In this document: in pieces, positions 1 to 41,826 of the stretch | Layout: each line of letters begins with the position of its first letter | Position numbering within the stretch: position 1 is the stretch's first letter | The notes under the pieces: model-generated | Databases searched by the model: none | What the model was told of the DNA's origin: nothing | Seen by the model: only the letters and a program-made list of their open reading frames with translations | Position numbers and translations under genes: made by a program | From: a virus | Virus record (IMG/VR): IMGVR_UViG_3300029743_000011 | Strand: one strand, 5' to 3' | Length of the DNA: 41,826 bases

Positions 1-99
1 GCTGTTTGACGAGGAAAGACATGGAAACCGTCATCTATCAGGCAAATCTCGGAAGGGAGAACGCAAAAATCGCGCAACTGTATTTTGTGGATAAGTTAC
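1..99. repeat. Terminal direct repeat, copy 1 (assembly overlap of a circular molecule)
   Basis: gctgtttgacgaggaaagacatggaaacc...ttttgtggataagttac is identical to 41728-41826. Confidence 0.9.
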
Positions 100-209
100 C
101 ACAGGTAGACGTTGCCACAGAGCTGTATCTTGGACGCGCTACGGTGCAACGCCGCCTGCCGGGTATCGTGCGGGAGATGCAGCGCACATCCAAAAAACTG
201 TATAACTGA
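6..209 (+). CDS. Sigma-70 region-4-like HTH protein, C-terminal part (same gene as 41688..41826)
   Basis: NAKIAQLYFVDKLPQVDVATELYLGRATVQRRLPGIVREM resembles a sigma region 4 / phage late-regulator HTH. The stop at 207-209 is followed by a terminator. Confidence 0.65.
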   Translation: MTRKDMETVIYQANLGRENAKIAQLYFVDKLPQVDVATELYLGRATVQRRLPGIVREMQRTSKKLYN

Positions 210-210
210 G

Positions 211-242
211 ATAAGCGCCGGTTTCTCGGCGCTTATTTTTTT
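211..242 (+). terminator. Rho-independent terminator
   Basis: 10-bp stem ataagcgccg / cggcgcttat, 6-nt loop, then T6. Confidence 0.8.
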
Positions 243-262
243 ATATTTTTGCAAAAAAGTAC

Positions 263-291
263 TTGACATATAGTGTTTAATACTATATAAT
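263..291 (+). promoter_or_regulatory. Consensus sigma-70/SigA-type promoter
   Basis: TTGACA (263-268), exactly 17 nt spacer, TATAAT (286-291). Sits 45 nt upstream of the first accessory gene. Confidence 0.75.
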
Positions 292-335
292 AAGGCCATA
301 AGATAAAGCAAGGCGAAAGCCGGGAGGGAATAAAA

Positions 336-704
336 ATGGAAACCAAGAAAATCGATACGAAGAAACTTTACTACGCCTCGAATAAACTCAGTACTTTCGA
401 AAGCAGGATTTATGCGGAGGTGGAAACGGCGCACAAGTTTATGTGCGAAGGGTTTATCACGGAAACTGAATTCGCGGCGATCAGAGCAGACCGCGAAAAG
501 AAAATGGCACCGTATAAAGACGGAGCCGATCTGCTGACCCGCTTCGCGAATGCCGTGAACGCGCAGGTTTACATGGACGAAACCGGCGATATCATGGCAG
601 AGATGATGGTTGCGAATTCGGAGCCCGTTGAGAGTTTCGACCTTGAGGCTGTAAAAGCAGCCTTGCGCCGCGCGGCGGACCTCGACGACCCCATGCCTTG
701 CTGA
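336..704 (+). CDS. Hypothetical acidic protein (accessory operon gene 1)
   Basis: ATG follows a GGGAGGG RBS. 122 aa. No motif recognised. Confidence 0.6.
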   Translation: METKKIDTKKLYYASNKLSTFESRIYAEVETAHKFMCEGFITETEFAAIRADREKKMAPYKDGADLLTRFANAVNAQVYMDETGDIMAEMMVANSEPVESFDLEAVKAALRRAADLDDPMPC

Positions 705-718
705 TTGGAGGCGGAACT

Positions 719-1201
719 ATGCAGAGCGATTCGCAGCGCCGCGCCACTGCAAAGTGGCAGGCCGAAAACATGACAAACGTCGCCGCTAGAGTGCGGCGTG
801 AGCTTGCTGAAGAATTTAAGGCGGCAGCAAAAGAGGACGGGACAACACCCAATGAGCTCCTGCGGGGCTGGATTGGTGAGTATATAAACAGGGAGGTGAC
901 GACTATGACAACCGAGCAGATTCAGGCGCTCGCCGTGATCTTTGCGATCTGCCGCAAGGCCACAAATACAAGGAGCCAGAGCGACATCGACAACGCGCAG
1001 AGATTCCCCATCAAGTGGGCGACCATTATGGTCCGCAAGCTCCACGCGATGGGCAAGGCAACGGACGATATCGACCGCGCAATCGCCGAGCAGTACGGCA
1101 AAATCGACATCGATACGTTTACGGCCAACTTTGACAAATGCCTCACACTCGAGCAGCAAGGCGTTTGGAGCATAGCATATTTTAAAGAGATGACGAGATA
1201 A
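719..1201 (+). CDS. Ribbon-helix-helix (CopG/Arc-like) N-terminal domain protein (accessory gene 2)
   Basis: ATG 719 follows GGAGG (706-710). RRATAKWQAENMTNVAARVRRELAEEFKAAAKEDGTTPNELLRGWI fits a strand-helix-helix pattern. The C-terminal ~100 aa are unassigned. Confidence 0.5.
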   Translation: MQSDSQRRATAKWQAENMTNVAARVRRELAEEFKAAAKEDGTTPNELLRGWIGEYINREVTTMTTEQIQALAVIFAICRKATNTRSQSDIDNAQRFPIKWATIMVRKLHAMGKATDDIDRAIAEQYGKIDIDTFTANFDKCLTLEQQGVWSIAYFKEMTR

Positions 1202-1243
1202 GCAAAATTGAGGCACAACTGAGGCACACGAAAATACGAAAAA

Positions 1244-1282
1244 GCCCATACTGGACACATCAAAGGAGTGTTCGGTATGGGC
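1244..1282 (+). promoter_or_regulatory. Hairpin enclosing the RBS and start codon of the next gene
   Basis: gcccatac (1244-1251) pairs with gtatgggc (1275-1282). The loop holds AAAGGAG and the right arm holds ATG 1277. Flanked by an A-run and a T-run. Confidence 0.45.
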
Positions 1283-1660
1283 TTTTCTTATTTCAATCCG
1301 AATCCGGAAGGCAAGCAGGTCGGAGACTGTACCGTCCGGGCGATCTCAAAAGCAACGGGCAAGAGCTGGGATGAAACATACGTTGGGCTTTGCCTACAAG
1401 GGTTGAAGATGGGAGACATGCCATCGTCAAACAGTGTCTGGGGCGCGTACCTCCGGCAACAGGGATTTACCCGGAACGTTGTGCCGAACACATGCCCAGA
1501 CTGCTATACGGTCGAGGAATTCGCAAGAGACCATCCGCGCGGCGTGTATGTACTCGCTCTATCGAGCCACGTAGTGTGCGTAGAGGACGGAAAGTATTTC
1601 GATAGCTGGAATTCCGGGAACGAAATCCCGCTGTTCTACTGGGAAAAGGAGGATAAATGA
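1277..1660 (+). CDS. Papain-like (C39-like) Cys-His fold protein, putative peptidase (accessory gene 3)
   Basis: GDCTVRAISKATG (Cys), then about 80 aa later SSHVVCVEDGKYFDSWNSG (His, Asp). This resembles the C39 pattern DCG...H[YF]VV...D. Confidence 0.5.
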   Translation: MGFSYFNPNPEGKQVGDCTVRAISKATGKSWDETYVGLCLQGLKMGDMPSSNSVWGAYLRQQGFTRNVVPNTCPDCYTVEEFARDHPRGVYVLALSSHVVCVEDGKYFDSWNSGNEIPLFYWEKEDK

Positions 1661-2127
1661 TGTTTGGACAACAGCCTTATGTGTATCAGCAGCCGATTTA
1701 CAATCAACCGCCCATGATGCAGGAACCAATGATGCGTCCACAGTATCAGCCTGCGCCGTCGATGCAGTATCCGACTCCACAACCTCAGCCACAGCAACCG
1801 AGCGGTGGACAGTCTATCATCTGGGTTCCGAACGAAAAGGCGGCAAACGAATTTATCGTCGCGCCGAATAACGCCGTCACGCTCTGGGACATGAATGCGC
1901 CGGTTGTGTACGTGAAGAAAGCCGACGCAAGCGGTAAACCAGCAATGACAACGTATGACCTCGTGGAGCGCTCTACAGCCCCCGTGAGCCCCACAGCGCC
2001 GCAAACAGTGCCTACAGTGGAATACGTGACCCGCAAGGACTTTGACGAACTGGCGGCAAAGGTGGCGGCTCTGAGCGTCAAGCCCGTTAGAAAGGTGAAG
2101 GAGGCAGAAAATGAATCCACTGTTTAA
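1657..2127 (+). CDS. Gln/Pro-rich low-complexity N-terminus plus small beta-rich domain protein (accessory gene 4)
   Basis: ATGA overlap with the previous stop, RBS AAAGGAGG. First 50 aa are QQPYVYQQPIYNQPPMMQEPMM...PQPQPQQP. Confidence 0.6.
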   Translation: MMFGQQPYVYQQPIYNQPPMMQEPMMRPQYQPAPSMQYPTPQPQPQQPSGGQSIIWVPNEKAANEFIVAPNNAVTLWDMNAPVVYVKKADASGKPAMTTYDLVERSTAPVSPTAPQTVPTVEYVTRKDFDELAAKVAALSVKPVRKVKEAENESTV

Positions 2128-2323
2128 TGCACTCGGCGGCGGGCGAATGCAGGGGCTGGCCGGACAGTTTCAAGGCATGGTGCAGCAGCTGCAGCAATTC
2201 GCACAGACGTTTCAGGGAGACCCGAAAGCGGAGGTTCAAAAACTTCTGCAGAGCGGGGCAATGAGTCAGCAGCAGCTAAACCAGCTGCAATCTATGGCGT
2301 ATCAGGTTAGAAACCTGATGTAA
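2111..2323 (+). CDS. Small Gln-rich helical protein (accessory gene 5)
   Basis: ATG follows a GGAGG RBS. 70 aa: MNPLFNALGGGRMQGLAGQFQGMVQQLQQF... Confidence 0.55.
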   Translation: MNPLFNALGGGRMQGLAGQFQGMVQQLQQFAQTFQGDPKAEVQKLLQSGAMSQQQLNQLQSMAYQVRNLM

Positions 2324-2386
2324 TGATTGGTTTCAATTCGTGGCCACGATTGAGATAAATTCAAATCTACGAAAGGAGAAAAAAGT

Positions 2387-3172
2387 ATGAGTCTTTCCGA
2401 TGGCGGTATCCAGCCGACCATGCCCGTTCAGCCCGCCGGAAACTATAGCGGCGGTATGGGAATGTGGGGGGATAACTGGATCTGGATTATTGTGCTCTTC
2501 CTCTTCGGCTGGGGCCGGAATGGCTGGGGCGGCAATGGTAATGGCAACGGTTCCGGCGTTGTTGACGGCTATGTCCTCGCATCCGACTTCTCGAATATCG
2601 AACGCAAGCTCGACGGCGTGAACAACGGCATCTGTGACGGCTTCTACGCCATGAACACAGGCATGCTCAATGGTTTCGCCGGCGTGACGCAGGCCGTGAC
2701 AAGCGGGTTCTCGCAGGCCGAACTTTCTCGCTGCAACCAGCAGGCGGCCTTGATGCAGATGCTCTTCCAGATGCAGATGCAGTCGCAGAACTGCTGCTGC
2801 GAGACGCGCGAAGCAATCCAGGGCGTGAACTACAACATGGCGACGCAGGCCTGTGACACGCGCAACCAGGTGCAGAACAGCACTCGCGACATCATCGACG
2901 CGATGAACTGCGGCTTCCGCAGCATCGACCAGAGATTGACGGCGCAGGAACTGGCTGCGAAGGACGCGAAGATTGCCGAGCAGAACCAGCAGCTCTTTGC
3001 GGCGCAGCTGGCGGCTTCTCAGGCGGCACAGAACGACACGCTCAAGTCCTACGTAAGTGGGCAGCTGGCGTATTACAACCCGCGCCCGGTTCCTGCATTT
3101 GAGGTTCCAGCCCCGTACCAGTATTCCGGATGTAATAACGGCTACAACTACGGTTGCAGAAACTGCGCGTAA
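2387..3172 (+). CDS. Single-pass membrane protein with Gly/Asn-rich segment, Cys-rich helical region and Gln-rich coiled coil (accessory gene 6)
   Basis: RBS AAAGGAG. Hydrophobic WIWIIVLFLFGW, then GRNGWGGNGNGNGSG. 11 Cys including NCCCE and a C-terminal CNNGYNYGCRNCA. Confidence 0.65.
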   Translation: MSLSDGGIQPTMPVQPAGNYSGGMGMWGDNWIWIIVLFLFGWGRNGWGGNGNGNGSGVVDGYVLASDFSNIERKLDGVNNGICDGFYAMNTGMLNGFAGVTQAVTSGFSQAELSRCNQQAALMQMLFQMQMQSQNCCCETREAIQGVNYNMATQACDTRNQVQNSTRDIIDAMNCGFRSIDQRLTAQELAAKDAKIAEQNQQLFAAQLAASQAAQNDTLKSYVSGQLAYYNPRPVPAFEVPAPYQYSGCNNGYNYGCRNCA

Positions 3173-3253
3173 CAACTCCACATCGTAGAGCTTTTTGTGA
3201 TGTTTTGTTGGCATCAACAAAATGTTCGGCTTACCGCCGATGCTCAAGAAACG

Positions 3254-3283
3254 CGGCGGGGCAATCGTCCCGCCGTTATTTTT
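3254..3283 (+). terminator. Rho-independent terminator inside the accessory operon
   Basis: Stem cggcggg / cccgccg, 8-nt loop, followed by ttattttt. Confidence 0.55.
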
Positions 3284-3289
3284 AACCGT

Positions 3290-3301
3290 GTCGAATTCGA
3301 C
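3290..3301. promoter_or_regulatory. Perfect 12-bp palindrome GTCGAATTCGAC
   Basis: Read directly from the sequence. Lies between the internal terminator and the RBS of the next gene. Confidence 0.35.
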
Positions 3302-3323
3302 GCATTTAGAAAGGATTGATTTT

Positions 3324-3746
3324 ATGGCAGAATTTACGAATGTAAACATTCAGACAATTGCCGCCGGGCAGAACGTGCCTCTGACGGAAACGGCGATCAG
3401 CAGCAAGCCGTGCATTGTGCATCGAGAGGGAAGCGGGCTTGTGACGCTTCGCGGGCTGACAAACCAGTGTAGGGCAGTTTTCAAAATTTCCTACGGCGGC
3501 AACATCGCCATCCCGACCGGCGGCACGGTCGAAGCGATTACCGCAGCGCTTTCCATCAACGGCGAAGCACTGGCAAGCGCTACGGCTACGGTCACTCCGG
3601 CAGCAGTCGAGAATTATTTTAATATCTACGTCTCTGCACAGGTCTGCGTACCGAAGGGCTGCTGTGTGACGGTAGGTATGCGTAATACAAGTACGCAGGC
3701 GGTCAATTTCGCGAACAGCAATTTGACCGTCGAGAGAGTAGCATGA
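3324..3746 (+). CDS. BclA C-terminal / C1q-TNF-like beta-sandwich protein, putative (accessory gene 7)
   Basis: ATG 3324 follows AAAGGA. The upstream in-frame ATG 3222 would read through a terminator. The strand-rich pattern (VTLRG...FKISYGGNIAIP...ALSINGEAL...VCVPKGCCVTVGMRNTS...NLTVERV) resembles exosporium BclA-C/BxpB-type domains. Confidence 0.45.
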   Translation: MAEFTNVNIQTIAAGQNVPLTETAISSKPCIVHREGSGLVTLRGLTNQCRAVFKISYGGNIAIPTGGTVEAITAALSINGEALASATATVTPAAVENYFNIYVSAQVCVPKGCCVTVGMRNTSTQAVNFANSNLTVERVA

Positions 3747-3760
3747 AGGGAGGAAGGAAT

Positions 3761-4132
3761 ATGTACGATTTAAGAAATCTTCGGGAAATGCTCTGCAAGG
3801 AGCTGGACGATATCGCCGACAAGCGCGAAATGTCCGCTGGCGATCTGGATGCCATCCAGAAGCTTACCAGTTCCATCAAGAACACCTACAAAATCGAAAT
3901 GCTCGAGGACGGCGGGTACTCCCGTGACGGCGAGTGGGAAGCGGACATGCGTGGCACGTATGGGCGTGGCAGCTCCTACCGTGGCAGGCATCGCGATTCT
4001 ATGGGGCGGTATAGCCGGACAGATGCTCGGGAACATATGCGCTCGACGCTGGAAGACATGATGCGCGACGCGGACGATGATAAGACGCGCGATGCTATCC
4101 GCCGCTGCATGGAGCAGATTGACAGAGCATAA
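3761..4132 (+). CDS. Charged Arg/Ser/Tyr/Gly/Asp-rich protein (accessory gene 8)
   Basis: ATG 3761 lies 7 nt after GGGAGG. An alternative ATG at 3743 overlaps the previous stop. Central GTYGRGSSYRGRHRDSMGRYSR. Confidence 0.6.
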   Translation: MYDLRNLREMLCKELDDIADKREMSAGDLDAIQKLTSSIKNTYKIEMLEDGGYSRDGEWEADMRGTYGRGSSYRGRHRDSMGRYSRTDAREHMRSTLEDMMRDADDDKTRDAIRRCMEQIDRA

Positions 4133-4144
4133 GGAGGGAAAGAC

Positions 4145-4492
4145 ATGCTGGATGAAGCCGAAATCCGAAAGGAAATAGCACGGCTGGAATACGAAGAATC
4201 CAGCTATCCCAATTATGCCAAACTGGCGAACCTATATGTGATACGCGACAAGATGCAGGAAGAGGAACGGGGCGACGGCGGTAGGTATGTGGGTTACTAC
4301 TCCGGCGCTCCCGCTCCTGTTACCGCGCAACCGGCTACCGTGGGCGAGTACGGGGACAGTGAGTTTTTGCTTTCGGTAGCTGGTAAAGACCCGGCAAAGG
4401 CTTGGACGGTCGTTGATGAACTTATGGACACATTATCGCTTGTGAACCGAAAAGTCTATGATTCCGTGCTTCGGAAAATAAAGTCCATGTAG
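4145..4492 (+). CDS. Hypothetical protein (accessory gene 9)
   Basis: ATG follows an AAGGAGGG RBS. 115 aa. Confidence 0.6.
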   Translation: MLDEAEIRKEIARLEYEESSYPNYAKLANLYVIRDKMQEEERGDGGRYVGYYSGAPAPVTAQPATVGEYGDSEFLLSVAGKDPAKAWTVVDELMDTLSLVNRKVYDSVLRKIKSM

Positions 4493-4529
4493 CAAAAAAC
4501 AGGGGAGTCCCCTCGCATTGTACTTAATT

Positions 4530-4551
4530 TGTAGCATACAATGTAGCATAC
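4530..4551. repeat. Two direct TGTAGCATAC repeats (putative integrase arm-type sites)
   Basis: Copies at 4530-4539 and 4542-4551. The same 10-mer recurs at 4792-4801 on the other side of the attP core. Confidence 0.6.
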
Positions 4552-4635
4552 GGGAAATGATTTTATGTTACATAGCGTTCCATAACGTGATTTTTCGCTT
4601 TTTGAAAATACGCAGAAAACAGGGTGAAAAGCATA

Positions 4636-4680
4636 AAAAAGTACCGATTTTAGCTTGAAAACAGCTAAAATCGGTACTTT
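4636..4680. terminator. Strong bidirectional rho-independent terminator
   Basis: Perfect 15-bp stem gtaccgattttagct / agctaaaatcggtac, A-run on the left and T-run on the right. Confidence 0.8.
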
Positions 4681-4744
4681 GGCGCGGAAGGAGAGATTCG
4701 AACTCTCGCTCGCTTTTTAGACGACTACTCCCTTAGCAGGGGAG
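4680..4744 (-). mobile_element. attP core: 3' portion of a tRNA-Ser(GCU) gene
   Basis: The minus strand reads CTCCC-CTGCTAA-GGGAG (anticodon arm, GCT), a long variable arm, GAGAG-TTCGAAT-CTCTC (T arm), then CTTCCGC-G-CCA. There is no D arm or 5' acceptor strand upstream. Confidence 0.75.
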
Positions 4745-4779
4745 AAAAAACCATTGAAAACACTGGGGAAATTGGCATT

Positions 4780-4801
4780 TGTAACATATTTTGTAGCATA
4801 C
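4780..4801. repeat. Arm-type repeat TGTAGCATAC plus degenerate copy TGTAACATAT
   Basis: 4792-4801 is an exact copy. 4780-4789 matches 8/10. An inverted degenerate copy (atgttacata) lies near 4564. Confidence 0.5.
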
Positions 4802-4806
4802 ATAAT

Positions 4807-5910
4807 TCACTCTGGCGAGTCGTTTTGCAACTGATTTACGGCATCGACCATGCCTTTCATGTCCGGGTGTACGTACCGTTGGGTAGTCGTTATCTTCGTG
4901 TGGCGCATGATTTCCTTGATCGTAAACGGGTCGATGTTTTTCATCGCGAGGGCTGTAGCAGTTGTATGGCGGCATGAGTAAGGGGGCAGCTTTTGCACTC
5001 CGGCAAGCTCCAAACACTCATAATATCTCTTGTAAAAATTATCTTTGTTTATGCAGCAGATATTTCCGACGCGCGACTTGCTTTCTTCGCATAGTTCATG
5101 CAGCACCGGCGCAACGAAATCCGGGAAGACCATAGGCGTTTCCTTCCGCTTCTTTGTCTTTATGCCGCCTCGGACGATCTCATTTTTCTCAAAGTCAATC
5201 ATGTCCTTCTTGAGCTTCAGAAGCTCACCAGGCATCATACCGGTATAGATCATCGTAAGGATAAAACCGACAAAGTGGTCTTTTGCATACGCTTCCCATA
5301 GCTTTTTTACGTCGGCGTCGGTGAACGGCTCCGGCGTTTTTTCTTCAAGCTCCGGAAGCTTTATGTACTTTGCAAGATTCACGGTAGTCTGCTTTTCGGC
5401 AATCGCGAGATTGTAGCAATGGGAAAGGACTGTTTTCATGTCCTTCCGCGTGTAATAGGTGCTGGCATTGCGGTCAACAATGTCCTGTATCTGCGCGATG
5501 GTAAGCGCGTCGATCTCACGGTCGGCGATTTCTCTCATGCGATCGAAAGCCTTTTCCGCCGCTCCCTGACGGTCAGCCGATAAGGATAAATAATCCCCAC
5601 GCAGATACGTTTTGTAGTATTCCCTGAGTGTAGGGCTACGCCGCTCTTCCTTCGGCGGGTTGGCGGCATATTGGAGCGCGGCACGCTTTGACGTAAAGCC
5701 TCCCTTTGTCTTCATCTTTTGATGGAGCTTGTCATTTTCGTCAAGGTACGTCTTTTCAGTCCACCGGGCAGTCCACGTCTTCCCACGCTGGTAGGCGCTT
5801 CCTTGCCCGTTCCCGCGTGTCCGGTTTCGATGCGCTTCTTGTTTTTTGCCGCACCAGCAACAGTAAGGCGCGCCGTCAGGAATTTCTTTTTTACACTTTA
5901 TGCACTCCAT
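4807..5910 (-). CDS. int: Tyrosine integrase with N-terminal zinc ribbon
   Basis: ATG 5910 follows GGAGGG. N-terminal CIKCKK...CCWCG. C-terminal ...YSCRHTTAT...MRHTKITTTQRYVH carries the R/H-x-x-R/Y catalytic signature. Confidence 0.9.
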   Translation of the reverse strand: MECIKCKKEIPDGAPYCCWCGKKQEAHRNRTRGNGQGSAYQRGKTWTARWTEKTYLDENDKLHQKMKTKGGFTSKRAALQYAANPPKEERRSPTLREYYKTYLRGDYLSLSADRQGAAEKAFDRMREIADREIDALTIAQIQDIVDRNASTYYTRKDMKTVLSHCYNLAIAEKQTTVNLAKYIKLPELEEKTPEPFTDADVKKLWEAYAKDHFVGFILTMIYTGMMPGELLKLKKDMIDFEKNEIVRGGIKTKKRKETPMVFPDFVAPVLHELCEESKSRVGNICCINKDNFYKRYYECLELAGVQKLPPYSCRHTTATALAMKNIDPFTIKEIMRHTKITTTQRYVHPDMKGMVDAVNQLQNDSPE

Positions 5911-6466
5911 GTTTCCCTCCACGTTCTTTCCGGATTGCATAGAAAGTAATCGCCGAAGCCAGCGCTGAACCTACGATCAGGGCAATGCAAACCCATGCGG
6001 CCACGGACAAATCTCCATCGCGAATGAGACCTGTGCTTCGAATCTGCGCATCCGTCACAAGGCAGGCAATCAAAGAAAAGGAGAGCAGCATACAAAACAG
6101 GGCGAGGACGTAACACATTGTATGTGTAGACCTTATCTGTGCGCTCTGCACTGCCGCTGTTGCCTCCAGCTTGGCGTTTTCAATCTCGACATGATGGATC
6201 TGCTCGGTCAGCTCTTCCGGGCTTTCTGCGGGCTGAACAAGCCCGAACAGTTCATCCAGCGACAGCCCGAGAACGCGGCACAGCGCGGCAGAATTGTACA
6301 GTTTCGGGTCTTGCTGTGTTCCTGCGCAGAGCTTCGTCACAGCCGATCTGGAAACGCCGGATTCCTCGACAAGTCTGTCGATGGTGTAATGCTGATCTTC
6401 TTTCGCCCGCTTGATGTTCCCCTGATATGCAGAAATATATGGGGCGAGTTCCTGAATTGCTGACAT
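5891..6466 (-). CDS. XRE-family HTH protein with coiled coil and two C-terminal transmembrane helices (repressor-like)
   Basis: GGAGG RBS. HTH region IDRLVEESGVSRSAVTKLCAG. TM segments CYVLALFCMLLSFSLIACLV and AAWVCIALIVGSALASAITFYAI. The 3' end overlaps the int start by 20 nt. Confidence 0.8.
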   Translation of the reverse strand: MSAIQELAPYISAYQGNIKRAKEDQHYTIDRLVEESGVSRSAVTKLCAGTQQDPKLYNSAALCRVLGLSLDELFGLVQPAESPEELTEQIHHVEIENAKLEATAAVQSAQIRSTHTMCYVLALFCMLLSFSLIACLVTDAQIRSTGLIRDGDLSVAAWVCIALIVGSALASAITFYAIRKERGGKHGVHKV

Positions 6467-6762
6467 GATATACCTCCGTTTTCACATATATTTCGCTGAT
6501 TTTTCCGCCACTGGTATGATTTTACCAATTTGAGGGTGGACATTTCTGCCGCTTTTGCTATGCTGGTTGCAGGCGCGTGAGAAAGCCCCACCGCCGGGGG
6601 AGCGACGGTGGGGCGATCTTAAACATTCCATTATACAAAATAGTCTGTCCCATAATTGCCGCTTACGAGGGTTGCCGGACGAAGAAAATGCAAGGTGTTC
6701 TTTGTGGAAGATTCCAAATTGAAATTACTGAACGAACGTTCTAAAATATGGAGGTACACCAA

Positions 6763-6948
6763 ATGCAGAGCATCAATATTCGCTTTGAAAACGGGAAAGT
6801 AAACATCATCGTAGACGGGGCGCTTTTCAAAGACGTCCACAGTCTAAGCCTGGACTACATCAAGGGCGCACCCATGCTCTTTGCTTGCGTCTCAGATGTA
6901 GGCGGCGAGAAGCGGGAGCAGTGGAACCAATGCCCGCTGCCGAACTGA
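6763..6948 (+). CDS. Small hypothetical protein
   Basis: ATG 6763 lies 8 nt after GGAGG. 61 aa. An antisense ORF (6631..6840) competes, so it is uncertain. Confidence 0.35.
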   Translation: MQSINIRFENGKVNIIVDGALFKDVHSLSLDYIKGAPMLFACVSDVGGEKREQWNQCPLPN

Positions 6949-6956
6949 TAACGCCT

Positions 6957-7541
6957 TTACTTTGGGTGGCAGCCTCCGCAAGGTGAATACCCAGAGTTCT
7001 GTGCATCTTCTGCACTATCAAACCAGATTTCATTCTCTGGGAGGATTTCCTTCGCGAAGCGGCAACCCGGATTATGGTATTTATCCGAGTCAACACTTCC
7101 GACGTATACACCTGATGATTTCGGTGACGTTGTTTCCGTAACTGGCTCAGAGACCTGGGAAGCAATAGCTTCCGAAACAGGCCGCTCGGTTGGTTCGGAT
7201 GCTTCGATCGGAGCGTCCGGCGCAGCGGGGGCGATATCGGATGCAGCGGAATTGATTGGGGATGTTTGCACGGACTCCGCCGGAACGGAAACCTCTGACT
7301 TCTCTTCGATTGTATCAGTGGAAGACTGCGATACGCTAGAAATATCAGTGTTTGGTGTCTCTGCTGTTTTCGGTGCAATGAACGCCGCAAATATCAAAAC
7401 GCAGAACGATATCAAAATACATTTCCAATATGTTTTTCTGTGAGGACTCAAACGCTTGATGAACAGTAAAATGATAAGCACCGATAGTGCGCATGACGAT
7501 ATCAAAGCCAATGTTACAGATATGAATTCCAAAAGCACCAC
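6957..7541 (-). CDS. Membrane-anchored protein with Ser/Thr/Pro/Glu-rich linker and C-terminal Ada-like ('sunset'-type) Cys motif domain
   Basis: Two N-terminal hydrophobic helices. C-terminus YVGSVDSDKYHNPGCRFAKEILPENEIWFDSAEDAQNSGYSPCGGCHP. Confidence 0.7.
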   Translation of the reverse strand: MVLLEFISVTLALISSCALSVLIILLFIKRLSPHRKTYWKCILISFCVLIFAAFIAPKTAETPNTDISSVSQSSTDTIEEKSEVSVPAESVQTSPINSAASDIAPAAPDAPIEASEPTERPVSEAIASQVSEPVTETTSPKSSGVYVGSVDSDKYHNPGCRFAKEILPENEIWFDSAEDAQNSGYSPCGGCHPK

Positions 7542-7598
7542 CCCTTTTTTGAAATCACTATAATTTTAGCATCAAATCTGGACGCCGGCAACGAAATC

Positions 7599-7820
7599 AT
7601 GTACGAAAATGAAACCGAAATTTTGACAGAAATGGAGAAAATTATGGATGAAATTAAAAAGCAGGAAGAGCAATCATGGGAATTATACATATTGTCAGAT
7701 GAAGACAGAAATTTCCTGTCGATAGTTCATAATAAGAACATTAGAAAAGCCCTTTTGGAGCGCCTCCGAGATTTAGGAGAGCTTCCCGCTTTTCTTGAGG
7801 TAGAGAATGGAACCAAGTAA
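7599..7820 (+). CDS. Hypothetical acidic protein (doubtful)
   Basis: AT-rich ORF with no clear RBS. Its last 80 nt overlap the 3' end of the convergent gene 7741..8151. Confidence 0.3.
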   Translation: MYENETEILTEMEKIMDEIKKQEEQSWELYILSDEDRNFLSIVHNKNIRKALLERLRDLGELPAFLEVENGTK

Positions 7821-8151
7821 GAAGGGCTTTGTCTTTAGGCGTTAGCGCTTCGCCATCGGCGGGGCGCTCTTTTTTTATGCCCTTTTCCCGTTCCCGCTCG
7901 ATCAGGCTGCGCACTAACTCGATATCTGCCTCTTCTACAAGAATCTCCTCCGGCGTGGTTTGCAGCAGAACGCACATACGGGCGGCTTCTTCGGGGGAAG
8001 GGAGGTTTCTGCCACGCTTGAGATCAGAAACCCACGAAGGGCGGTCTTCGAAACCCATAGCTAAGCAAAATACAACATTGCTCCGAAAGTGCTTGTCAAT
8101 CTGCACTTTTACAGAGTCGTATATGATTTTTACGGTCTTCTTTCTGGACAT
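7741..8151 (-). CDS. XRE-like HTH DNA-binding protein (CI-like candidate)
   Basis: AAGAGG RBS. SWVSDLKRGRNLPSPEEAARMCVLLQTTPEEIL. The start lies 13 nt downstream of the nuclease gene stop, suggesting an operon. Confidence 0.7.
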   Translation of the reverse strand: MSRKKTVKIIYDSVKVQIDKHFRSNVVFCLAMGFEDRPSWVSDLKRGRNLPSPEEAARMCVLLQTTPEEILVEEADIELVRSLIEREREKGIKKERPADGEALTPKDKALLTWFHSLPQEKREALLNLGGAPKGLF

Positions 8152-8164
8152 AGCAAACCTCTTA

Positions 8165-8917
8165 TTACTGATTATTAAGCATTTCGATTATTTTTTCTCT
8201 ATCCCACAGTAAAACGCGCGTTTTTTCGGCGAGAGCTTTTGCACCACTCGTAAAGTGCCGGTTTGTCATTACCACAGCAACTTGGCAGTTATACATTTCT
8301 TTTCCGGCAAAAACTTCTTGTACGGGCTTATTTCCTAAATCCGAAGAAAAACATTTGCACTGAATGGCATAGTGTATTTCTTCCTTTTGCGCGACTATAT
8401 CGACGCCCTGATCATTGCTGCCCGGAGTGACAGACACGTTGTAAAACCCATTGCTTCTAAGCAAATTCGCGCACCAGAATTCAAATGCATGGCCATCCAT
8501 TACGTCAATTTTATATAACTCATTTTCGATCTTGGACAATCCGCGCTGTTCTCTTCTCCAATCCTCTTCTTCTTGAAGAATTGATCGAACATCAATCTCT
8601 GCGTGAGGCTGTTCCCTTTGAACAGGTTGAGCCGCTACCGGCTTAACGGGAAGAATCGGTTCAACCACGTCTGCATCCTTATCAAATTTAAGCGACCTAC
8701 TCTTCCTCTTTTTTCGGCCCAGTTTGCAGGAAAAATAAAATGCTGCGGCTATTCCGACAAATGGATACCATGTAGGAGCAAGCAATGTGTTTGTTGTTTC
8801 ATCCACTGGGAACACGGCACAGCCGATTAAATGATAAGCAAGAAATACGCCGAAGAAAATGAGCACGCGCTTTGCAAATCCTAGAACGGGACGTATTGGT
8901 TTGTTCATTCTACCCAT
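8165..8917 (-). CDS. Membrane-anchored Mrr_cat-type (PD-(D/E)xK) restriction endonuclease-like protein
   Basis: Two N-terminal TM helices. C-terminal GHAFEFWCANLLRSNGF...GSNDQGVDIVAQ...YAIQCK...VVMTNRHFTSGAKALA. The DNA is AT-richer than its surroundings. Confidence 0.75.
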   Translation of the reverse strand: MGRMNKPIRPVLGFAKRVLIFFGVFLAYHLIGCAVFPVDETTNTLLAPTWYPFVGIAAAFYFSCKLGRKKRKSRSLKFDKDADVVEPILPVKPVAAQPVQREQPHAEIDVRSILQEEEDWRREQRGLSKIENELYKIDVMDGHAFEFWCANLLRSNGFYNVSVTPGSNDQGVDIVAQKEEIHYAIQCKCFSSDLGNKPVQEVFAGKEMYNCQVAVVMTNRHFTSGAKALAEKTRVLLWDREKIIEMLNNQ

Positions 8918-8948: not shown

Positions 8949-8993
8949 CCGGAATATTTCTGGCATTACCCTTGACAGCCAGAAATATTCTGG
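8949..8993. promoter_or_regulatory. Two operator-like sites CC(A/G)GAA-N3-TTCTGG, centres 30 bp apart
   Basis: ccggaatatttctgg (8949-8963) and ccagaaatattctgg (8979-8993) are inverted copies of each other (14/15). The second fills the spacer of the consensus promoter. Confidence 0.6.
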
Positions 8994-9000
8994 TTATAAT
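8972..9000 (+). promoter_or_regulatory. Consensus rightward promoter (early lytic, PR-like)
   Basis: TTGACA (8972-8977), 17 nt spacer, TATAAT (8995-9000). Confidence 0.65.
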
Positions 9001-9027
9001 ATACCCATGATAAATCAAAACAGGCAA
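8998..9027 (-). promoter_or_regulatory. Candidate leftward promoter (PRM-like), back-to-back with the rightward one
   Basis: The minus strand reads TTGCCT, 18 nt spacer, TATATT. Confidence 0.3.
9008..9017. promoter_or_regulatory. Operator-like palindrome TGATAAATCA
   Basis: Reverse complement of the site at 9132-9141. Both are followed by AAA. Confidence 0.4.
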
Positions 9028-9113
9028 AGCTAACGCCAACCCACAAGCATTTTTTCGGTTTGCGGGCTTATTACCGATATTTTGTTGGCTGACACTTACA
9101 TAATAAAGGCTTT

Positions 9114-9142
9114 TTGACGTTTTGTCAACGCTGATTTATCAA
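9114..9142 (+). promoter_or_regulatory. Second candidate rightward promoter
   Basis: TTGACG, 17 nt spacer, TATCAA. Lies 25 nt upstream of the cro-like start. Confidence 0.35.
9132..9141. promoter_or_regulatory. Operator-like palindrome TGATTTATCA
   Basis: Inverted copy of 9008-9017. Overlaps the -10 of the second rightward promoter. Confidence 0.4.
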
Positions 9143-40489: not shown

Positions 40490-40759
40490 ATGACAGAAAA
40501 GACGTTTTTTGAGCTTGTGAAAAAGCTGGTGACTGTTTACACCAACGAACACTTAGACAAGAGCGACGGAAAGCAGATCGGCCCTGATGACGTTTACGTC
40601 GTGTGGTACTGCAAAACGTTGCAGAATTGGAAAGCGCTGGCTTCCACGACGCTGTTCGACGGCATGTACTACGAACTGACGCTCAACGGCGACAAGCAGG
40701 AAATCTATCTCGACGCTTACAAAAAGTTCGAGAACCGCGCAATCAAGGTGGAGGGCTGA
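40490..40759 (+). CDS. Hypothetical soluble protein
   Basis: 89 aa between the two membrane proteins. Confidence 0.55.
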   Translation: MTEKTFFELVKKLVTVYTNEHLDKSDGKQIGPDDVYVVWYCKTLQNWKALASTTLFDGMYYELTLNGDKQEIYLDAYKKFENRAIKVEG

Positions 40760-40761
40760 TT

Positions 40762-40986
40762 ATGGAAAACATTAAAAAGCGGCTGGGCAATTTGCTCAGC
40801 GTCAAATCTCTGGTCACACTGGTGCTGACCGGCGTGTTTGCGTACATGTCTGTAGCCGGTAAGATCTCGCAGGACTTTATGACGATCTACGCCGTGATCA
40901 TCGCGTTCTATTTCGGCAGTCAGTCTCAGAAGCTTCAGGACGCACTCGACGGTAGCAAAAATGCGCAGGAGGGCGAACAGAAATGA
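40762..40986 (+). CDS. Holin (two-TM, SPP1-holin-like)
   Basis: ATG follows GGAGGG. TM segments LVTLVLTGVFAYMSV and IYAVIIAFYFG. Charged tail. Overlaps the endolysin start. Confidence 0.6.
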   Translation: MENIKKRLGNLLSVKSLVTLVLTGVFAYMSVAGKISQDFMTIYAVIIAFYFGSQSQKLQDALDGSKNAQEGEQK

Positions 40987-41675
40987 TGAAAGCATCCGAG
41001 CTTGTGCGCAGGCACATTGACGTTGCGAAGAATTACAAGACCGTCTACATGTGGGGCTGCTTCGGCTCCCCCGTAGGCGAGACGATCATTGACGAGAAAT
41101 CCGCCCAGTACCCGGACTGGTACACCGGCGGCAGAGTCACGTATCTGCGCAATCTTATCGGCAAGGGCTATTTTGGCTTTGACTGTGTGAACCTCACGAA
41201 GGGCATTCTCTGGGGCTGGAACGGCAATAAAAACGCCTACTACGGCGGTGCAAGATACGCTTCGAACAGCGTGCCGGACGTTTCCGCCGACGGCATGATC
41301 GCAAAGTGTAAGGACGTGTCCGCCACCGGCTGGGACAAGCTCATTCCCGGCGAAGGCCTCTGGATGCCCGGCCACTGGGGTATGTACATCGGTGACGGTC
41401 TGGCGGTCGAATGCACCCCGATCTGGGACAACGGCGCACAGATCACCGCCGTCCAGAACATCGGCACGAAAGCAGGCTACCACGCCCGCAATTGGCAGAA
41501 GCACGGAAAGCTCCCGTGGGTCGAGTACGACACCGTGAAGGTCGACGAGGCCGTCGAGGAGGCGAAGAAGACCATCAAGCAGAAGGCCGGTCTTACAGAC
41601 AGCACGATCGATTACCTCGCCGGATACAAGTACGGTGACGATCTTCTCAAAAAACTCGCAGCTGCGATGAAGTAA
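40983..41675 (+). CDS. Endolysin, NlpC/P60-like cysteine peptidase type
   Basis: FGFDCVNLTKGILWGW (Cys) and GHWGMYIGDGLAVE (His). Lies directly after the holin. Confidence 0.65.
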   Translation: MMKASELVRRHIDVAKNYKTVYMWGCFGSPVGETIIDEKSAQYPDWYTGGRVTYLRNLIGKGYFGFDCVNLTKGILWGWNGNKNAYYGGARYASNSVPDVSADGMIAKCKDVSATGWDKLIPGEGLWMPGHWGMYIGDGLAVECTPIWDNGAQITAVQNIGTKAGYHARNWQKHGKLPWVEYDTVKVDEAVEEAKKTIKQKAGLTDSTIDYLAGYKYGDDLLKKLAAAMK

Positions 41676-41687
41676 GGTGGTGTTATT

Positions 41688-41826
41688 ATGGCACCGCAGG
41701 CGCGGGCAAAACTCCCGCCGGAGCTTGGCTGTTTGACGAGGAAAGACATGGAAACCGTCATCTATCAGGCAAATCTCGGAAGGGAGAACGCAAAAATCGC
41801 GCAACTGTATTTTGTGGATAAGTTAC
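41688..41826 (+). CDS. Sigma-70 region-4-like HTH protein, N-terminal part (gene crosses the circular junction and continues at base 100)
   Basis: ATG 41688 lies 7 nt after AGGTGG (41675-41680). The frame continues into ORF 6..209. Joined product is about 82 aa: MAPQARAKLPPELGCLTRKDMETVIYQ... Confidence 0.7.
   Translation, partial: MAPQARAKLPPELGCLTRKDMETVIYQANLGRENAKIAQLYFVDKL
41728..41826. repeat. Terminal direct repeat, copy 2
   Basis: Identical to bases 1-99. The reading frame of the junction gene is preserved across the repeat. Confidence 0.9.

Follow-up and report, generated by a model that had tools for sequence, protein, structure and literature searches.

Lambdoid and HK97-like prophages carry morons, promoter-gene-terminator units of which lom and bor are examples, and PBSX and SPbeta have multi-gene lysis cassettes that include accessory membrane proteins (xhlA-xhlB-xlyA). 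In this study, we have analysed a locus that shares features with both. It lies in IMG/VR virus record IMGVR_UViG_3300029743_000011, a stretch of 41,826 nucleotides (hereafter the window), and consists of nine genes on one strand (g1 to g9) between the lysis genes and the phage attachment site, attP. A sequence-only reading had described the nine genes as a single insulated operon, a moron of unusual size, and had proposed that it remodels the cell or spore surface of the lysogen or excludes other phages. Our comparison of related loci divides the block into two units. The segment 208-1201, with g1 and g2, is an ordinary small moron that separates the final gene of the late operon from g3; g3 to g9, usually together with a small helix-turn-helix (HTH) gene that follows the endolysin (sigl), form a conserved cassette of fixed order. 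Like the lambdoid and HK97-like morons, window 208-1286 has a terminator upstream, carries one or two genes behind a consensus promoter of its own and has a U-run hairpin on the downstream side; among close relatives, it is present or absent at one exact site. Unlike them, g3-g9 is not polymorphic in close relatives, has no sigma-A consensus promoter and is found in an apparently lytic phage too. We favour, with a probability of about one half, the view that g3-g9 is a tightly gated module whose products work at the cell envelope very late in the lytic cycle, as lysis occurs or directly afterwards.

The separation of the two units comes from the 44 IMG/VR loci in which sigl and g3 are both present. 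In 22 of the 44, the gap between these genes is 60-77 nt long and has no consensus promoter; in 22, it measures 567-1880 nt and holds an insert. A perfect TTGACA-17-TATAAT promoter is present in 20/22 insert-bearing loci against 0/22 insert-free loci, and the cargo of the inserts varies (g2 alone in 11, g1 with g2 in six, other genes in five). Counted over the 44 relatives, g2 is carried by 17 and g1 by six; g1 is found in locus L004 as well. The 77 nt before g3 in the window are the sequence that directly follows sigl in insert-free relatives, and because this junction is shared, the terminator at 208-239, the promoter, g1 and g2 make up a small moron at a precise point. In loci L003, L005 and L013, sigl leads straight into g3 with no terminator in between. 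As expected of a moron, g1-g2 have a sigma-70-type promoter of their own, and promoter and g1/g2 are present or absent together at one site among collinear relatives. A candidate terminator downstream of g1-g2 is the hairpin at 1240-1286 with its U-run, which a simple terminator scan did not call.

The sequence-only reading had seen the parts of this region correctly: we confirm the upstream terminator at 208-239, the perfect promoter at 263-291 (12 of 12 positions) and nine same-strand genes, each with a good ribosome-binding site. Its single insulated operon did not stand, since the U-run hairpin at 1240-1286 separates g2 from g3 and a conserved terminator at 3253-3276 separates g6 from g7. 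The presence/absence pattern that it had suggested looking for was seen for the promoter with g1-g2 and not for g3-g9, which are fixed in the relatives compared. Perfect TTGACA-17-TATAAT sites number only two in 41.8 kb, the one at 263-291 and an early promoter at 8972-9000 (chance alone would give some 0.1 sites with one mismatch or none), and we found no promoter comparable to 263-291 before g3, g6 or g7.

Within the spacer and -10 of the 263-291 promoter lies an inverted repeat, ATATAGTGTT / AATACTATAT (268-277/279-288), whose position suggests an operator. The obvious candidate to bind it is the g2 product, which has an N-terminal ribbon-helix-helix (RHH)-like region followed by a domain of ~100 amino acids and may regulate its own synthesis. 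Its match to RHH_10 (E=0.0015, 19.2 bits) falls short of the Pfam curated cut-off of 27 bits, and its C-terminal ~100 amino acids weakly match the abortive-infection toxin AbiEii (PADLOC E 5.8e-5). No family match was obtained for g1 in Pfam, PHROGs or NCBIfam. One possibility for the variable cargo is therefore a small gene of the toxin-antitoxin or defence type.

The cassette behind this moron was mapped with ten proteins (tblastn and hidden Markov model maps) onto 13 loci from bacterial genomes, several GenBank phage records and 80 IMG/VR contigs. The 13 bacterial-genome loci belong to Oscillospiraceae or other Clostridia, except for one bin labelled Prevotella that is probably mis-binned. 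In every one of the 13 genome and 80 IMG/VR loci that reaches far enough, g3-g4-g5-g6-g7-g8 occur in one order, usually with sigl before and g9 after; the exceptions are a chromosomal remnant of three genes and those loci that the end of a contig interrupts. The presence/absence behaviour of a moron is not seen here, g3-g9 being kept in every related locus that no contig end interrupts. The carriers, siphophages that infect Clostridia of the gut and rumen, include temperate and apparently lytic phages and number in the thousands: the cassette was found in more than 540 IMG/VR contigs, the g3 family comprises 2652 clusters at 50% identity, and g6 and g7 comprise at least 7995 and at least 7969 clusters, respectively, at 90% identity. 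It almost always adjoins the holin/endolysin genes and is encoded on the strand of the late genes.

Within the cassette, stop codons overlap start codons in several places, and insertions gather at three regulatory junctions, namely before g3 (where the moron sits), between g5 and g6, and after an RNA element at the g6|g7 junction. Dulem virus 33, which has the full cassette after the endolysin as in the window's clade, carries an endonuclease between g5 and g6. A homing-type endonuclease occupies the g5|g6 junction at L001 8280-8831. About one third of the loci have an extra ORF (open reading frame) of 109 amino acids between the RNA element and g7 (L004 7679-8008), and Butyrivibrio virus Ceridwen has an HNH endonuclease between g7 and g8 (L102 9518-10312).

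Large protein searches returned thousands of relatives of the cassette proteins, all without names or Pfam domains. Scans of all ten proteins with Pfam, NCBIfam and PADLOC gave no informative match, nor did PDB sequence and profile searches with g3, g4, g6 and g7, and PHROGs place g3-g8 in families that are every one marked 'unknown function'. The absence of any recognisable virion, replication or lysis family, noticed from the sequence at the outset, is thus borne out by these searches.

The window is a complete circular phage genome of 41,727 unique bp with a 99-bp repeat (1-99 = 41728-41826), so its ends are those of a circular or terminally redundant assembly. Closing the circle through this overlap places the block, as had been proposed, between holin/endolysin (40603-41675) and attP/integrase, and the circular order reads tail genes, small membrane proteins, endolysin, sigl, terminator, promoter, the nine genes, hairpin, attP and integrase. 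The sigl gene (41688->209) starts 12 nt past the endolysin stop. It immediately precedes the block, and we count it as part of the conserved unit of g3-g9, which it accompanies in most relatives. Its product matches sigma-factor models weakly (Sigma70_r4 E 0.062, sigma70-ECF E 0.005, both under the curated cut-offs). A sigma-like HTH gene precedes the cassette in Ceridwen and stands inside it in Dulem virus 35, where the matches (Sigma70_r4 8.5e-4, GerE 7.7e-3, phrog_1190 1.3e-4) are likewise below curated cut-offs.

The cassette is thus linked to the lysis genes, and the comparison with PBSX and SPbeta follows: like their lysis cassettes, it is contiguous with holin and endolysin and has one membrane-anchored helical product, and an XhlA-type gene is found inside the cassette of Dulem virus 35. 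Unlike in PBSX and SPbeta, the products of g3-g9 include no homologue of XhlA, XhlB or XlyA. To our knowledge, seven extra genes in a lysis module would be unprecedented.

A second property of the cassette, besides its place on the late strand, is that it appears to be gated by RNA structure. In the window, the g3 start lies within a fold-back hairpin whose loop contains the ribosome-binding site and whose stem includes the g3 AUG (minimum free energy -34 kcal/mol, z=-6.5). In the L011/L012 clade (L011 ~6060-6140), the sequence is different and the g3 start codon likewise pairs with an upstream segment. Full pairing of the AUG is seen in 42 of 56 distinct g3 leaders; the corresponding counts for g4-g9 are 4-18 of 28-66. 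The 5' arm of the hairpin contains a -10-like CATACT, and it follows from this position that a transcript beginning ~7 nt downstream would lack that arm. Fold-back inhibition in IS10 and IS50 has a comparable design, in that an upstream segment pairs with the start codon and only transcripts starting inside or after the segment can be translated; by analogy, the g3 leader suggests protection from read-through transcription. Unlike in IS10/IS50, the g3 hairpin also has terminator features, and we take the likeness as an analogy of design only.

Between sigl and this hairpin, two copies of TGAGGCACA are candidate binding sites for a regulator. Two or three copies stand at the same place in L003, L005 and L013, directly after sigl. 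We rejected TGAGGCACA as a general late-gene motif, as its copies are found only upstream of g3. We also rejected CATACT as a sporulation -10 of the sigma-E/K/G type: the box is the arm that pairs against the start codon, and the host of one carrier does not sporulate. In several other clades (L001 ~7077-7206, L006-L008, L015, L102 6878-7084), a small helical ORF of ~45-70 amino acids overlaps the g3 start. Such an ORF could act through translational coupling, replacing the fold-back leader of the window's clade.

Two further elements stand downstream. The hairpin before g6 (AATTCGTGGCCACGATT, with the conserved TTGAGATAAAT / TTGTAAATA box after it) has arms that change together across loci, and its single-sequence fold is not significant (z 0.24). 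The element at the g6|g7 junction comprises two hairpins (H1 and H2) and a terminator (H3), and shows compensatory changes in 11 of 21 pairs (RNAalifold, 17 loci); its covariance model finds one copy per locus, at this junction only. Against 4227 Rfam models, this element and the g3 leader gave only chance-level matches (E 0.2-1), far below gathering scores, and no conserved antiterminator pairing was found by eye for the terminator. In some loci, the terminator lies only ~12 nt from the g7 ribosome-binding site, so that g7-g9 must be transcribed through it. The element may act as an attenuator or, in the manner of put, aid read-through.

The features of the window are collected in Table 1.

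Table 1. Features of the window around the g1-g9 block (positions in the 41,826-nt stretch)
Feature	Position	Strand	Remarks
sigl, 82 amino acids	ATG 41688 to 41826, then 1-209	+	sigma-70-region-4/LuxR-like HTH; wraps window ends
Intrinsic terminator, T-run	208-239	+	arms 211-220/227-236; closes late/lysis operon; 5' edge of insert
Sigma-A consensus promoter, TTGACA-17-TATAAT	263-291	+	12/12 match
g1, 122 amino acids	336-704	+	variable cargo
g2	719-1201	+	variable cargo; ORF opens TTG 698; likely start ATG 719
Direct repeats of TGAGGCACA	1209-1228	+	two copies, 11 bp apart; unique in genome
Fold-back hairpin over g3 start, 19 bp	1240-1258/1268-1286	+	flanked by A-run and U-run
g3, 127 amino acids	1277-1660	+	likely start ATG 1277
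g4, 156 amino acids	1657-2127	+	start overlaps g3 stop
g5, 70 amino acids	2111-2323	+	24% Gln; helical predicted from sequence; phrog_22984
Hairpin AATTCGTGGCCACGATT, then conserved TTGAGATAAAT / TTGTAAATA box	2330-2360	+	box ~25 nt before g6 ribosome-binding site
g6, 261 amino acids	2387-3172	+	
Structured RNA element: H1, H2, terminator H3	3173-3286	+	g6|g7 junction; H3 at 3253-3276 plus T-run
g7, 140 amino acids	3324-3746	+	likely start ATG 3324
g8	3761-4132	+	ORF opens 3743; likely start ATG 3761
g9, 115 amino acids	4145-4492	+	conserved GDSEF...DELMDTL...RVYDSV motifs
TGTAGCATAC repeats, two copies	4530-4551	+	third exact copy 4792-4801, other side of attP core
Hairpin adjoining attP core	4638-4655/4663-4680		perfect 18-bp inverted repeat; T-run on minus strand only
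attP core	~4678-4745		identical to 3' part of tRNA-Ser(GCT)
Tyrosine integrase	4807-5940	-	repressor-like gene alongside
Endolysin	40983-41675		phrog_3513

The products of the cassette give some indication of what it might build. The best-defined is g7, the most conserved of them, with 66-96% identity as compared to 40-79% for g6 (bacterial-genome loci). Its model (AF2, mean predicted confidence, pLDDT, 82) is a jelly roll of the TNF/C1q type that starts at residue 2. In the PDB, Foldseek ranks the F-BclA and BclA C-terminal domains and ExsFA/BxpB best (E ~1e-6, template-modelling (TM) score ~0.75), the top entries being 9h38, 7r1m, 8d02 and 1wck, followed by TNF ligands and C1q. The modelled fold is thus like that of the exosporium proteins of the Bacillus cereus group (the C-terminal domain, CTD, of BclA and ExsFA/BxpB), and like ExsFA/BxpB, g7 stands alone without a collagen stalk, beside a Cys-rich protein, in a set in which no product has a signal peptide; we found no collagen-like Gly-X-Y stalk N-terminal to the domain. 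In sequence, however, g7 shares only 11-14% identity with these proteins and has no Pfam BclA_C match: searches with Pfam and NCBIfam at E<=0.1 to 1 gave neither BclA_C nor C1q, and a PDB profile search did not return BclA. Stand-alone relatives of g7 are found in many uncultured siphoviruses, myoviruses and podoviruses.

The Cys-rich neighbour is g6, which has a short N-terminal tail, one hydrophobic segment flanked by Trp, a Gly/Asn-rich linker and a long Gln-rich helical region, with 10 Cys that include an invariant CCC and a C-terminal Cys cluster. Its sequence is unrelated to that of the Cys-rich ExsY and CotY, and it carries a membrane-anchor-like segment; moreover, the host of one cassette carrier does not form spores. 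In g4, Gln, Pro, Met and Tyr make up 39 of the first 55 residues; a conserved domain of ~55 amino acids follows, then an EYVTR...helix. The g8 product has conserved helical ends around a low-complexity middle rich in Tyr, Ser, Arg, Gly and Asp. No leader-like hydrophobic N-terminus was found in g3-g5 or g7-g9.

The model of g3 is confident (AF2 pLDDT 91) and shows a small alpha+beta protein, in which Cys18, His98 and Asp109 are invariant in 27 sequences. The best PDB fold match is weak (Josephin-2, E 0.05, TM 0.51), and the next ones, CHAP and Tae4, are at E ~1 or worse with TM ~0.3. On the strength of the model, g3 appears to be a small papain-like Cys-His-Asp protein; it gave no sequence match to Peptidase_C39/C39_2, NlpC/P60 or CHAP in Pfam, nor to solved peptidases. 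A kinship with the C39_2 endolysin-like protein of bajarodcaudo virus 5 was considered and rejected, as there is no similarity. Nearly all g3 relatives are stand-alone, with a few tandem or membrane-anchored forms and at least one full g3-g4 fusion (P0478), and this natural fusion ties g3 functionally to g4. Fusions of g3 with g4 and tandems of g3, some with an N-terminal membrane anchor, occur among P0478, P0486, P0442, P0462 and P0509, and Pfam scans of the long g3 relatives revealed only these g3-g3 tandems, membrane-anchored tandems and g3-g4 fusions. The order g3, Gln/Pro linker, g4 in the fusion mimics the layout of two-component and modular endolysins (PlyC; CHAP or NlpC/P60 with a cell-wall-binding domain), to which the small Cys-His-Asp, papain-like g3 with its faint CHAP and Tae4 fold matches would also be akin. 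Unlike those enzymes, g3 has no NlpC/P60, CHAP or C39 sequence match, and the phage already has an endolysin. The first description of the products was thus apt for g3 as a papain-like Cys-His protein and for g4/g5, g6, g7 and g8; of the predicted structures, that of g7 is BclA-C/C1q-like as anticipated and that of g3 gave weak papain-like matches only.

Taken together, these observations lead us to the model of a very late, envelope-directed module as follows. The sigl product would be made along with the lysis proteins and would turn on a promoter at the TGAGGCACA repeats, with CATACT as its -10 and a start near position 1259. Transcripts from this promoter, without the 5' arm of the 1240-1286 hairpin, would be translatable, while read-through transcripts, whether from the late operon or from the promoter at 263-291, would fold over the g3 start codon or terminate there. 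Expression of g7-g9 would be gated by the second, terminator-containing RNA element. The products would assemble around the membrane-anchored, Cys-rich g6, with a g7 trimer as the head, g4, g5, g8 and g9 as low-complexity partners, and g3 as a papain-like enzyme acting on or with g4. The overlapping stop and start codons, the g3-g4 fusion, the TNF/BclA fold of g7 and the lack of leaders speak for such an assembly. Our confidence in any specific activity of the cassette is much lower than in the general reading.

Several points weigh against this model. Both the g3 promoter with its putative start site and the part played by sigl were deduced only from the sequence, and CATACT with a GGCACA -35 makes a poor sigma-A promoter. 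In half of the relatives, as in the window itself, a strong promoter lies upstream and no classical short terminator precedes g3, so some expression in the lysogen is possible. The membrane orientation of g6 is ambiguous, and the papain-like assignment of g3 comes from a model whose best fold match reaches only E 0.05, with no sequence match to solved peptidases. Dulem virus 39 has g6 and g7 homologues after its integrase gene, and g3-g5, g8 and g9 were not detected there. Finally, an Oscillospiraceae contig of 120 kb (L009) holds the chromosomal remnant mentioned above, a 5'-truncated g6, the RNA element and intact g7 and g8 (6628-8818) flanked by host sulfatase/aminotransferase genes on one side and nucleoside hydrolase/AraC genes on the other; the vicinity contains no further phage genes. 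Such a remnant could mean a benefit to the host.

One alternative is that the products are virion accessory proteins, with g7 trimers, perhaps on a g6 coiled-coil stalk, serving as capsid decoration or auxiliary fibres and the other proteins as assembly factors. Phage fibres and spikes often bear knobs of the TNF/C1q type, and the matches of g7 include the central spike of phi812, the short tail fibre of A-1(L) and collagen-plus-C1q proteins in BFVD; each gene of the cassette is encoded on the late strand, behind a strong ribosome-binding site. Gene neighbourhoods in distant phages also point this way. In Dulem virus 35 (L019 5675-9694), the whole cassette lies within the head-gene cluster, between minor head protein and scaffold, with the XhlA-type hemolysin-like gene (phrog_937, E 2e-13), a membrane protein and the sigma-like HTH gene between g3 and g4; in Dulem virus 36, g4 and g6 homologues come directly after the receptor-binding protein. 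Bajarodcaudo virus 5, in which only g4 and g6 homologues were found, has them further downstream, after holin and C39-like peptidase. Most phages, however, place the cassette past the lysis genes, outside the structural block and behind its own regulator and terminators, and a tailed virion has no need of the membrane-anchor-like segment of g6. The identity of g7 over the 13 bacterial-genome loci (74-96%) is also far above that of the other cassette proteins, in a comparison made among cassette products. We consider a virion role unlikely.

A second alternative, the one put forward by the sequence-only reading, is lysogenic conversion, with the cassette expressed in the lysogen and remodelling the spore coat, the exosporium or the cell surface. 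The fold of g7 is closest to the exosporium proteins BclA-CTD, ExsFA and BxpB, and the remaining set, a Cys-rich g6, Gln-rich g4/g5, a Tyr/Ser/Arg-rich g8, a papain-like enzyme and a GerE/sigma-r4-like regulator, also recalls coat or exosporium. Signal peptides are absent, as for proteins made in the mother cell, which for its part makes remodelling of the vegetative cell surface unlikely. The cassette stands at a prophage end beside attP, half of the relatives have a consensus promoter upstream, and the L009 remnant was retained in a host chromosome. The resemblances nevertheless do not go beyond composition or fold. In Pfam, neither BclA_C nor GerQ nor any coat-protein family was matched at E<=0.1, and the CATA-type box before g3 is accounted for by the anti-start-codon arm of the hairpin. 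A search of the literature for phage-borne BclA or exosporium genes and for links between Oscillospiraceae phages and sporulation found nothing relevant.

The strongest argument against conversion is Ceridwen, a cultured phage of Butyrivibrio fibrisolvens that has the full cassette, in the order endolysin, a membrane protein of 64 amino acids, sigl homologue, terminator, small ORF, g3-g7, HNH endonuclease, g8 and g9. Ceridwen has no annotated integrase, only lytic growth has been observed and its authors deem it probably virulent (PMC7372960), and Butyrivibrio is a genus without spore formation (PMC6249431). A full cassette in such a phage makes a general role that depends on lysogeny or sporulation unlikely and contradicts the spore-surface proposal; the place of the cassette among the head genes of Dulem virus 35 also speaks against it. 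We therefore give lysogenic conversion only a small chance.

A role in superinfection exclusion, anti-phage defence or counter-defence is equally improbable in our view: the accessory position near a prophage end, the presence of a membrane protein, a control as tight as that of many toxic effectors, the shifts of the cassette in genome position among distant phages and the homing endonucleases and variable cargo gathered around it would suit such a role, but g3-g9 and sigl match none of 5027 PADLOC models at E<0.005 (only the cargo gene g2 being weakly AbiEii-like), which leaves the proposed phage exclusion without a core product in a known defence family, no nuclease, ATPase, nucleotidyltransferase or sensor-type domain was found, and seven translationally coupled, structural-looking proteins and an apparently lytic carrier would be left unexplained.

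Returning to the very late module, we may also ask what sigl and g3-g9 would be if they carried out a function that has not been described before. This would be a very late function in which a dedicated sigma-region-4-like factor, produced together with holin and endolysin, turns on a promoter that is insulated by fold-back RNA and followed by a cis-acting RNA element. In the final minutes before lysis, the genes would then give a complex that is anchored in the membrane, rich in Cys and self-assembling, with a BclA/TNF-like trimer at its tip; stated in this specific form, we hold it to be rather improbable. Such a complex might be a coat, matrix or adhesin made of protein, which would be released together with the progeny and help them to survive in the gut or to be transmitted.

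The other side of the block confirms its place next to attP. The attP core matches the tRNA-Ser(GCT) gene bordering L004, an integrated relative, in agreement with the initial proposal. The 15-bp bidirectional terminator that had been described at 4636-4680 is present as a hairpin, but its stem is 18 bp long (4638-4680), and with the T-run on one strand only, it is a canonical terminator for the integrase direction and not clearly a bidirectional one. L004 has a hairpin of unlike sequence at the matching position. The three TGTAGCATAC copies around the core are likely to be integrase arm-type binding sites of attP. At some distance, the spacer of the early promoter at 8972-9000 (+) contains a palindrome, CCAGAAATATTCTGG, and this promoter faces another with an 11/12 match at 9128-9100 (-); the region 8972-9128 is probably the lysis-lysogeny switch.

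In conclusion, our results show that a perfect promoter beside a gene block does not prove that the block is one operon. The cassette behind the moron is among the most widespread blocks of entirely unannotated genes in phages of gut Clostridia, and with Ceridwen and its host in culture, its function is open to experiment. It brings two RNA-level controls that have no Rfam family, namely a sequestration of the start codon, which would blind the cassette to read-through, and a covarying three-hairpin terminator. As a lysis-linked, self-regulated unit rather than a lysogeny- or spore-specific moron, it points to lysis timing, burst size and the stability of the progeny.

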